Shown: in pieces, positions 18,576 to 21,500 of the stretch
How positions within the stretch are numbered: the first letter of the stretch is position 1
Layout of the letters: each line of letters starts with the position of its first letter
From: Euglena gracilis
Taxonomy: Eukaryota
Assembly: GCA_039621445.1 (NCBI GenBank)
Contig: CP154954.1
Coordinates: forward strand, 24,812,954 to 24,876,953
Direction: 5' to 3'
DNA: 64,000 nt
Translations under genes and position numbers: made by a program
The notes under the pieces: generated by a model
The model's database searches: none
What the model was told of the DNA's origin: nothing
The model's input: the letters and a program-made list of their open reading frames with translations, nothing else

Positions 18576-21500
18576 TTAGCCGCACTCCTCGCCGTCCTCA
18601 GGCTTGTCGGACCACGCCCCGACCGCGACCGACCGGTTCCCCTTCTCATTCTGCTCGGCTCCCCGCCGCTGCCCCCGACAGAAGGGGTGAGGATTATTGG
18701 GGGCGGGTGGAGAAGCCTTGGCACTGAACCCCCATTTGGACCCCCCATATCAGCGCCGCAGCACTGATGGCATGGAAGGAGAAAAATAAAAATGGGTGGA
18801 CATCATTTTTTTGAGCGATAAAGCAAGTTGTGTACAAAAAACACTGAAAAAAAATTGGCTGGGGGCAAATGCGCACCTGCACAGACAAGGGCGGCGGCAG
18901 AAGGGGGGGGGGGGGCTGGGCCTCGCCAGATGGTTGTTTGTCCCAAGCAAATATTTTGGTCGCACAAAGTGTTGAACCAAAAAAAAAGGAGGAATGTCAA
19001 AAAAAATTACCAGGGGTCGGAAGTTGTGATATGCATTCCCACCTGCCTGTCTCGGCTTGCCAGTGTTTCCCCCATGAAGCGATGCCAACGCAGTCGGCAA
19101 AAAACAACAATGGCAATAAAACCGCCAAAAAAAAACAACGGAAAATGCATTCCCGGCTGCCCAAGACCTGCCCCATCGAGGCTGGGCAGTGGCGGGGGTG
19201 GAGATCTTCTGGAGCAGGCCTGTCGCCTGGTCCAGGGTCTCCCGCAGCATCTGCTTTGCGCCGCCCACCTTGTTGTCTTGGTGGGCGGAGCAGATGTTGT
19301 CGAAGTCCCGGGCGGCCCTCGGCCTGTTGTGGCAGCCCCGTGGGGCCACATGAGCACCCACACGCAATGGCCGCCCAGAAGGAGGCAGCGGACGCACAGA
19401 TGGGTGGCTCGCGGGTGCACAGACTTCGACAGGCGTGTTATATAACAGCCTCCTGCCTCTGTACTTGCTTGAACTGTCCACCCTGTTTTCGACCTCTGCA
19501 CTCGTAGACTTGGCAAAAAGGTTTTTCCCAGGAGGGGGGAAGGTGCATGGTCTGCTGGTATTGGGGGCCAGGATTCGTGTTAAGGAAGGTTGCACCTCGC
19601 TGGGTGCTATGGGCAGGCAGGGGGTAAGGCACTTTCGACCTACAGATCCTCAGTGTACCTACCGAAAGGCCCACTCGAAGTGGCGTTACCTGTGAGACAT
19701 GGTTCTCGGAAGTCGAATCCCTTAGAACTAATGCTCAGAATCGTATTAGCAGCATCCATTCCCGTCAGAGACAGCAATATTTGCTAGAATTCAAATCACA
19801 AATACGATACAATGTCAAGACATAACGTGGCGAATACAAATCAATGTCAAGAGTGCTGGTGATCGCGTGTGGGTTCGAAATAGTCGAAGCGGCATGCAAT
19901 CTTCCAAATTGGACCCTCTCTGGCTGAAATACTCGGGGTGAAACCAAAAATGGCCATTTGTCCTTATTTCCATTTTCGGCACTCTTTGCCGAAAATTTCT
20001 TCAGCCCAGCCTGGCTTCGCCAGGCTGCGAAAACTTTAGTACCGATCGATCCCCCAGGGGAGGGTCCACAGCCTGGATATGGGAGCTGATGGCTGAAAAG
20101 AAGGTGCTTACTGGTTGATCCCCTTAAGAAATTGCCTGGGCCAGAGAGTCAGGCCGAGGCCCAGGCCCAGTCCGCCATCAGCTGCTCCACCCACGCCTTA
20201 AACTGCATCGGCGCCTCCTTCGTTGGGAACAGACCGTGGCCATCGTCTCCCCCTAGTGTGACCCATGGCTGCTTCCGTGCTGAAGGATCTTCTGCAGGAC
20301 TTTACGTGAAAAGTGTGTTTTTTTTGCGTTTATTTGTGTTTTTCTATTTGTGCTTTTTGTGTGGCGGTTTTCGAGGGTCCATGTCACGCCCCCCCCCCCC
20401 CGTGCTGTGCCCGGGCAGTGGCGAGGCAACCGCCCACCTGCTTCACCCACCCCGCTGTACCCCCACAGTATCACCAGAGAGCACTGCCGGAGGAGGAAAA
20501 TCATCACAATTTCCGGGAAAATTTTTCATTGTGCATCTAAATTATGATCTCTGTCTGATGAGATTTTGGGAGAGATCGAAATGATTATGGAAATAAAAAA
20601 AATGTGGACCAAAACATCCAAAATGGCTCAACAAAAATAGGTCCCAGGGAAAAGTGGAGCCAAAATGGCCCCCAGGCGGGGTGGAGTATTATCTTGGTTG
20701 TTTAAAGATTCATAAATTTATATTTGGTTGGTTGGTGCACACAACTAAAAAAAGACACTCTTCTTCATTAATTGATCCCTTGACCTTTCCTTTATGTGGA
20801 AGAGGGAAGCTGGAAAAGGACACAAGTTGCTCCTCACCAGCCGCTCAGGGGTTTTTTTTAAGACCGGGGGGGAGGGGGGGAGGGGGTCGGCACCCACCCA
20901 CCCACCCCCTGGGGTGGGCCCCCCCGGGGGAGGGGGAGGGGGGTCCCGGGGGACCCACCCAGTTTTGCCCGAAAATGGCCAAAAAGTGCCAAAAATAGCA
21001 CCTTTTCCAAAAAATTTCGGCGCCAAAGGCGCCGAAAAAGATACACCCACCAGCCCCAACCCCCACCCCGGGGGGGGGGGGGTCCAAGGGACCCACCCAC
21101 CCTACCCCCCGGGGGAGGGGGTCTAAGACTTAAAAAAACCCCTGCAGCCGCTAGATGGCCAGGAGATGGTGTGCTGGTATTGAGGTTGAAACGAAAACTT
21201 CTCACTTTTGCGGTCCCAACTCACTTGACTTGAGTGCAGGGGGGAGGCGATGGGCAGGTCCCTTGATACTGGGATGGAAGGCCATGTTCCCCTTCTTGAA
21301 GAGGAGCAGTCGAAGCAACCAGCCGGGCCAGGAGGCGTGTCCAAGCCAGGGCACCTGAGGACAGCAGAAATGCGAAGGCCCTGCCGAGAAACCCTGTCTG
21401 GTGGAAACTTTATGGAACTTTTCAGAGTCAAAGAGGCTGGAGATGTGCTGTTTTGAAATAAATTGACGAATGAATTCTCATCATGCTTGTGCTTACCAAC

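Follow-up and report, generated by a model that had tools for sequence, protein, structure and literature searches.

Origin and removal of the nonconventional introns of euglenids have been debated for decades. A splicing code for these introns has been derived from knock-in experiments and, in the text passages of the respective report, reads 5'-N3-CDG...CHG-N5-6 followed by a purine (R), with a donor spacer of strictly 3 nt and an acceptor spacer for which 5-6 nt are tolerated (PMC12501133). Mutation of the spacer nucleotide beside each motif left splicing unaffected, and fully synthetic 50-bp introns following the code were spliced (PMC12501133). In Euglena agilis, in which nonconventional introns make up about 72% of all introns, direct repeats are present at the junctions of 84.4% of the introns, conventional ones included (PMC12501133). 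In a review, the CAG/CTG motifs at +4 to +6 and -8 to -6 have been termed terminal inverted repeats (TIR), junction repeats resembling target site duplications (TSDs) have been described as frequent, and the introns have been reported to be released as full-length circles (PMC11282704). The present analysis concerns a 64,000-nt stretch of the genome of Euglena gracilis (assembly GCA_039621445.1, contig CP154954.1, positions 24,812,954 to 24,876,953; referred to as the window) and, within it, an element at window positions 20846-21144 with CAG...CTG termini and an 8-bp TSD, together with similar elements and with the introns of two genes, A and B.

An origin of nonconventional introns from MITEs (miniature transposable elements with inverted repeats) was proposed in 2014, when no euglenid transposon was known (PMC3935182), and MITE-like elements have again been suggested as an intron source in the discussion of PMC12501133. 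The general hypothesis that MITE-like elements with TSD-like repeats give rise to these introns is already published, and the remark in an earlier note on this DNA, made from its sequence, that a transposon origin had been suggested in general terms is in agreement with the passages of these two papers and of the review (PMC3935182, PMC12501133, PMC11282704). In gapC of E. agilis, a strain-specific, recent nonconventional intron is flanked by direct junction repeats of eight nucleotides, which exceed those of the other introns of that study in length (PMC4770533, 2016). The literature passages searched, to which figures and supplements do not belong, contain no statement that the 3 + 5 nt of the spacers equal the TSD length of co-resident elements and do not name hAT transposons; those of PMC11782384 and PMC11170887 gave no additional information on TSDs. 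The explicit statement of the 8-bp relation is new here, as are specific MITE families of a euglenid with which it agrees.

The closest parallel outside the euglenids are the introners of Micromonas and Aureococcus, which are cited in the available passages of the review (PMC11282704). As with the elements treated here, introners are non-autonomous transposons with inverted ends, and the TSD is part of the splice geometry; their insertion into exons is tolerated through a splice site supplied by the TSD, and the same idea is applied to the MITEs of the window. Introners depend on the spliceosome, with GT/GC-AG sites, have 3-nt TSDs and occur as thousands of near-identical introns, whereas the elements described here have an 8-bp TSD, would probably be removed by a machinery other than the spliceosome and are not accompanied by an intron family within the window.

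The layout of the elements in the window, consisting of an 8-nt duplicate, a CAG-helix...helix-CTG unit and the second 8-nt duplicate, coincides with the nonconventional splicing code of euglenids. This geometric match of MITE and nonconventional intron is real; a causal link between the two is plausible. That CAG...CTG MITEs with 8-bp TSDs seed nonconventional introns is considered a slightly better than even proposition. According to this proposition, an element would land in a transcribed exon, and its inverted ends would fold into a terminal helix. The cuts of the splicing machinery would then be placed 3 nt ahead of CAG and 5 nt behind CTG, so that the element would be removed together with 3 + 5 = 8 nt, which equals one copy of the TSD, and a target abcdefgh would be left as abcde+fgh. 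The reading frame would be restored whichever way the element points, since the termini are symmetric and scarless removal would therefore be independent of orientation. MITE families would in this way be one source from which nonconventional introns, present in very large numbers, arise, and older introns would be decayed copies.

The element at 20846-21144 (MITE 1; 299 bp, no strand being assigned to this or the other elements) starts with CAGGGGTTTTTTTT at 20846 and finishes with AAAAAAACCCCTG at 21144. Its inverted ends match over 13 nt, its interior contains many G and C runs, and BLAST within the window revealed a related left end at 46708. Flush with the inverted ends, CAGCCGCT is present at 20838-20845 and, identical at 8/8 positions, at 21145-21152. 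Judged by its sequence, the element is a non-autonomous cut-and-paste DNA transposon (MITE) that inserted into a pre-existing nonconventional intron and duplicated 8 bp of the target. In silico folding of its RNA gives, for either orientation, a terminal helix of the two ends, with 13 of 14 terminal positions paired. MITE 1 and its TSD together have the cis components of the code, namely CAG, CTG, the helix and eight flanking nucleotides, as read from the sequence and its predicted fold.

The intron that harbors MITE 1 belongs to gene B and is located at 20236-21255 (minus strand, 1,020 nt, 3 nt + CATCG...CGATG + 5 nt). Its splice joint (20234 to 21255) was recovered in RNA evidence aligned to positions 8900-23829 of the window, for which raw reads of two RNA-seq runs and two sets of contigs with the same species label were used; each of the contig sets contains the joint, and so do 21 and 34 raw RNA reads. 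The supported joint belongs to this host intron, and MITE 1 is not itself a nonconventional intron. No joint was found at the borders of MITE 1 among the 15 of 94 joints listed, and the read depth within the intron is too low for nested excision to be seen. Euglenid nonconventional introns are like MITE 1 with its TSD in having CAG/CTG, a helix directly behind these motifs and eight flanking nucleotides usable as spacers of 3 + 5 nt, and are unlike MITE 1 in that the latter lies in a larger intron and its own borders are uncut among the joints listed.

Joints such as 16979 to 20866 were rejected as introns, because the joined segments are similar G-rich repeat copies and the joints are read as cross-mapping from other copies. 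The G-rich segments concerned, 16956-16979 and 20866-20887, are connected by many reads, or reads run from them into long G runs, which suggests transcripts of other copies of a repeat family rich in G runs elsewhere in the genome.

Two further elements have comparable flanks. MITE 2 (44574-45829, 1,256 bp) has termini beginning with CAGGCATTATTTTTT and the TSD GTCCAGAC at 44566-44573 and 45830-45837 (8/8). Its inverted ends extend over 15 nt ungapped and are longer if an indel is allowed; the TSD is partly self-complementary, and by chance up to 10 nt can be assigned to the flank repeat. No further copy of MITE 2 was found in the window by BLAST. MITE 3 (56628-56927, 300 bp) has the termini CAGGCTTGTGCTTA with a 14-nt end match and is flanked by CGCACCAC and CCCACCAC, which agree at 7/8 positions. 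Its family comprises three copies in the window: in addition to MITE 3 itself, an old copy with 78% identity, the left terminus of which is mutated to CAT, is located at 21482-21768 inside intron 21325-22008 of gene B, and a truncated copy with 86% identity is located at 17026-17296 between genes A and B. Short length, terminal inverted repeats (13, 15, and 14 nt) and flush TSDs, which are hallmarks of MITEs, are common to MITEs 1-3, and, judged by their length, all three are too short to encode a transposase. Neither of two metagenome scans, for which the ends of MITE 3 and of MITE 1 served as queries, gave a match.

In the MITE 3 family, the 8-mers behind the three right ends are unrelated, and such differing flanks are what is expected of DNA transposition. 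The same flanks bear on a different explanation, in which the apparent MITEs are intron circles which, after excision, returned to the genome via RNA. The reported release of nonconventional introns as full-length circles (in the accessible text of PMC11282704) would provide the material for such a route. With a circle, however, the 3 + 5 spacer nucleotides of the former site would reappear in each new copy, and re-inserted circles are disfavored because the MITE 3-family copies have unrelated flanks; moreover, MITE 1 and MITE 2 have perfect duplicates that are specific to their sites. This explanation is considered highly improbable.

Two other CAG...CTG elements are present at 35934-37210 (1,277 bp, 13-nt inverted ends, flanks ATATGCAG and ACATGAAG agreeing at 6/8 positions) and at 55521-56340 (820 bp, 19-nt inverted ends, flush 7-bp GGTTATG on both sides). 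The elements at 35934, 44574, 55521, and 56628 are located outside the RNA-aligned stretch. At least three and probably five MITE-like elements are contained in the window, all with CAG...CTG termini and inverted ends of 13-19 nt. When the RNA of all five was folded in silico together with 8-nt flanks, the inverted ends formed a terminal helix starting from CAG/CTG in both orientations, with 12-14 of 14 terminal positions paired with their mirror partners. A further CAG...CTG pair at 43671-44062 has a perfect 16-nt inverted end and a flank identity of 2/8, that is, no duplication; it may be an old or rearranged element.

The association of CAG...CTG inverted ends with duplicated flanks exceeds chance. 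All CAG...CTG pairs with a spacing of 60-3000 bp and 12-nt arms matching at at least 10 positions were collected as candidates, which resulted in 154 pairs in the window. A flank identity of at least 7/8 was found for three of them, which are MITEs 1-3 and no others, compared to an expectation of 0.115 when left and right partners were shuffled. With the flanks shifted outward as a control, a shift of 8 nt gave no case of at least 7/8 and a shift of 16 nt gave one. If pairs with an ungapped inverted run of at least 13 nt are read as single CAG...CTG elements, five of six have TSD-like flanks; for this set of six, the pairs of the 30092-30972 cluster and 56794-58821 had been put aside by eye. 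In the cluster at 30092-30972, tandem and palindromic units that measure 22-55 bp and abound in GTAC and CAGG are densely packed, and the cluster yields many spurious inverted-repeat pairs. A scan over all trinucleotides also returned GTA, TAC, CAT, CCC, and GGG termini with flanks of at least 7/8; these were rejected as elements, being apparently tandem or homopolymer repeats by sequence and coordinates.

The statements of the earlier note on these elements stand: it had described 20846-21144 as a CAG...CTG MITE with an 8-bp TSD, which agrees with the 8/8 flanks and the 13-nt inverted ends, and had given 44574-45829 (8/8) and 56628-56927 (7/8), for which coordinates and TSDs are exact on reading the sequence. 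Its arithmetic, according to which the 3 + 5 nt of the intron geometry equal the 8 nt of the TSD, is correct and agrees with the published code N3-CDG...CHG-N5-6 followed by R in the passages of PMC12501133. Its designation of the whole as a candidate intron-generating system is upheld with respect to this arithmetic and the match to the code, but the process itself is not seen in the window.

Concerning the transposon family, the ends of hAT elements often begin with CAG or TAG, and the hAT target consensus is nTnnnnAn, with which one TSD out of the three agrees. The 8-bp TSD and the 10-25-bp inverted ends given for hAT MITEs in the available part of PMC3942097 both fit the elements described here. 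By TSD length and CAG terminus, the elements are candidate members of hAT. Among the 10 longest open reading frames of the window, no transposase family or hAT domain was found with Pfam; there was one weak match below the cut-off to a disordered repeat. Merlin transposons of E. gracilis share the euglenid host and the 8-bp TSD (PMC8101967, in the passages at hand). All Merlin families begin with 5'-GG, whereas all five elements of the window begin with CAG, which separates them from Merlin.

For comparison with the elements, 12 nonconventional introns and one conventional GT-AG intron were compiled, all located in genes A and B on the minus strand. Apart from two introns, for which loose ends of RNA were placed in the window by sequence, they are defined by RNA joints. 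In each of the two genes, a single open frame runs through all junctions once the exons are joined, which supports the RNA joints. The register of each intron was determined in gene orientation by counting consecutive pairs inward from +4 and -6 at each allowed cut position; the purine at the acceptor played no part in this choice.

The six nonconventional introns of gene A are located at 8377-9410 (3 nt + CAG...CTG + 5 nt, loose end placed in the window), 9477-9821 (3 nt + CAGACTTG...CAAGTCTG + 5 nt, no slide of the junction), 9878-10309 (3 nt + CAGGG...CCCTG + 5 nt), 10402-11480 (3 nt + CTC...GAG + 5 nt), 11581-13292 (3 nt + CAGGCTTCGCC...GGCGAATCCTG + 6 nt, with an 11-nt CAG...CTG inverted end), and 13322-13976 (3 nt + CAGG...TCTG + 5 nt). 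In gene B, the host intron of MITE 1 is accompanied by introns at 18657-19199 (3 nt + CCCGCC...GGCGGG + 5 nt), 19308-20166 (slide of 3 nt, GGG, and the weakest terminal helix with 3 pairs), 21325-22008 (slide of 5 nt, CCCGG in gene orientation), 22093-22516 (3 nt + CAGCCGGACG...CGTCTGGCTG + 4 nt, 10-nt end), and 22593-24108 (3 nt + CGAGG...CCTCG + 5 nt, containing an (ACAG)n array, loose ends placed). The GT-AG intron of gene A at 14091-16355, which reads CT..AC on the plus strand when the cut is shifted by 1, served as a control and has no terminal helix, as no register yields more than one pair.

A helix at +4/-6, corresponding to 3 nt + stem...stem + 5 nt, is present in 10 of the 12 nonconventional introns and comprises 3 to 8 pairs; the two exceptions have 3 + 6 and 3 + 4 nt. 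The acceptor exon starts with a purine in all 12. In the MITEs, a purine at this place depends on target site and orientation. It is the only site-dependent need of the code, corresponding to position f (position 6) of the TSD, and is present in three of the six orientation cases of MITEs 1-3 if the downstream flank is read and in four of six if the upstream copy of the imperfect TSD of MITE 3 is read. From the published code we infer that a copy lying in an exon would undergo splicing; likewise, a descent of the local introns from such elements is suggested by inference.

The first stem triplets of the 12 introns are diverse (CAG, CTC, CCC, CAT, CGA, GGG, and TGG). This diversity is in line with another possibility, in which the code is older than the elements and acts as a filter of tolerance: of many transposon families that invaded, only those with fitting ends and fitting TSD length would persist in or near genes, and most introns need not descend from them. 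That Merlin of E. gracilis, with an 8-bp TSD and GG termini, has been reported without being described as intron-like in the accessible passages of PMC8101967 points in the same direction. The window does not separate this possibility from seeding of introns by MITEs, since splicing of exonic copies is predicted by either. Such a filter, under which the match reflects selection on transposons and not a ruler adapted to them, is regarded as quite unlikely.

If introns were seeded by MITEs, remnants of the TSD might be expected at their junctions. The slide of the junction, that is, the length of the contiguous repeat at the cut, amounts to 1, 0, 2, 2, 3, 2, 2, 3, 1, 5, 2, and 0 nt in the 12 nonconventional introns, with a mean of 1.92 nt. 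The mean is 0.83 nt if donors and acceptors of different introns are combined and 0.70 nt at random positions (permutation p = 0.002). A slide of at least 2 nt is found in 8 of the 12 introns versus about 20% in the null; direct repeats as such occur at 44% of random positions in the window, compared to the 84.4% of introns given for E. agilis (PMC12501133). The full 8-nt comparison (5 exon + 3 intron nucleotides versus 5 intron + 3 exon nucleotides) gives 42 identities out of 96, with 33 for mismatched pairs (p ~0.02). The 12 introns have short junction repeats above chance and no clear 8-nt TSD footprint.

With regard to the introns, the earlier note had proposed the geometry of 3 nt, stem and 5 nt, often with a CAG stem, and this geometry holds in 10 of the 12 RNA-defined nonconventional introns, with a CAG stem in six. 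The intron ends that it had given as 21325/22008 and 19308/20166 are identical with the RNA registers, and the junction repeats CCCGG and GGG are present. A third intron, which it had placed at 24215-24780, beyond the RNA-aligned stretch, shows by sequence the expected geometry together with a direct repeat of 3 nt; this intron was excluded from all counts, because it is without RNA support. The note had further judged the junction repeats not clearly above chance and had proposed a comparison of intron and exon flanks across nonconventional introns. In this comparison on the 12 introns, the contiguous repeat adjacent to the cut does exceed chance, but the 8-nt identity is not specific to its place and no clear 8-nt footprint is seen, in agreement with the caution of the note.

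Several observations weigh against a seeding of introns by MITEs. The control columns of the flank comparison give 66 identities out of 192, the left 8-column block 38 versus 26 expected and the right block 28 versus 25.6; since the left control block is as raised as the predicted 8 nt, the excess of identity is not confined to these 8 nt. A first stem triplet pair CAG...CTG is present in only 6 of the 12 nonconventional introns. When the MITEs and all introns were compared with the window by BLAST, none of the 13 introns had a second copy, nested repeats aside, and a pattern like that of introners, in which many introns are copies of one element, is not found within the window. Nor does a MITE with its TSD serve as an intron itself anywhere in the window: MITE 1 is nested within intron 20236-21255 and is neither exonic nor an intron, the copy at 21482 is likewise nested in an intron, and the other copies are located in repeat-rich DNA or outside the RNA-aligned stretch. 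The sum 3 + 5 = 8 could be a coincidence, as about 1 in 9 offset pairs totals 8. Finally, the authors of the 2016 study interpreted the 8-nt repeat of the gapC intron as a result of double-strand-break repair, according to the passages of PMC4770533 concerned with it.

In the light of these observations, the elements might be ordinary transposons with no causal tie to the introns, which would have arisen, e.g., from filler DNA captured in break repair, and the 3/5 ruler would reflect only the shape of the splicing enzyme. Short direct repeats are also left by double-strand-break repair, which is the published reading of the gapC repeat (PMC4770533, in the text available). Furthermore, identity of the 8-nt flanks extends beyond the predicted place, no local intron is a copy of a MITE, and MITE 1 is intronic, as any neutral insertion might be. 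However, this explanation requires two independent chance matches, one in the CAG/CTG terminal trinucleotides and one in the sum of 8, and inverted ends are general among nonconventional introns. Furthermore, the newly gained gapC intron has all features of a nonconventional intron and a repeat of exactly eight nucleotides (same passages of PMC4770533), which adds weight to a causal link. A mere coincidence is considered unlikely.

Some features of genes A and B and of their surroundings are independent of these considerations. The RNA contigs of gene A stop matching the window at 16479 and continue into GAAAAAAAA, a minus-strand T-run ending in C that is joined to the first exon. This extension resembles the spliced leader of Euglena, and position 16479 looks like a spliced-leader trans-splice acceptor on the minus strand. 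The open frame of gene A begins with Met shortly downstream of this junction, and the orientation of the spliced-leader-like T-run at 16479 places both genes on the minus strand. In gene B, RNA and window differ at 18391, 18468, 18537-18557, and 22591. At 18468, a 1-nt deletion is present in 40 of 61 and 37 of 66 RNA reads, and at 22591, which adjoins a splice junction, the RNA reads have T and the window has C. These differences could have allelic, strain or assembly-error causes.

The GT-AG intron of gene A contains a repeat of about 460 bp at 14512-15008, an inverted copy of which, with 90% identity, is located 35 kb away at 49467-49942. The depth of RNA contigs over this repeat is very high, and it is probably a multi-copy element. 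Tetranucleotide arrays are present at 8493-8875 ((CCCT)n), 23826-24022 ((ACAG)n), and 31065-31273 ((TCCA)n), the first two of them inside nonconventional introns.

The broader form of the proposed seeding by MITEs is that the splicing machinery acts as a ruler matched to 8-bp TSDs, that exonic MITE insertions are erased scarlessly in RNA in either orientation, and that the MITE families of the window are the still-recognizable source; for this form, the chances for and against appear evenly balanced. The window supplies real elements with fitting ends and fitting TSD length, which makes the hypothesis directly testable. The relation 3 + 5 = 8 predicts 8-nt repeats in young introns, split 5/3 around the donor cut, and scarless splicing of a MITE with its TSD. 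If true, insertion of such elements into genes would be nearly neutral, which would explain why nonconventional introns are the majority of euglenid introns. If confirmed, this would add a second case, here a non-spliceosomal one, in which transposons generate introns on the scale of a genome.

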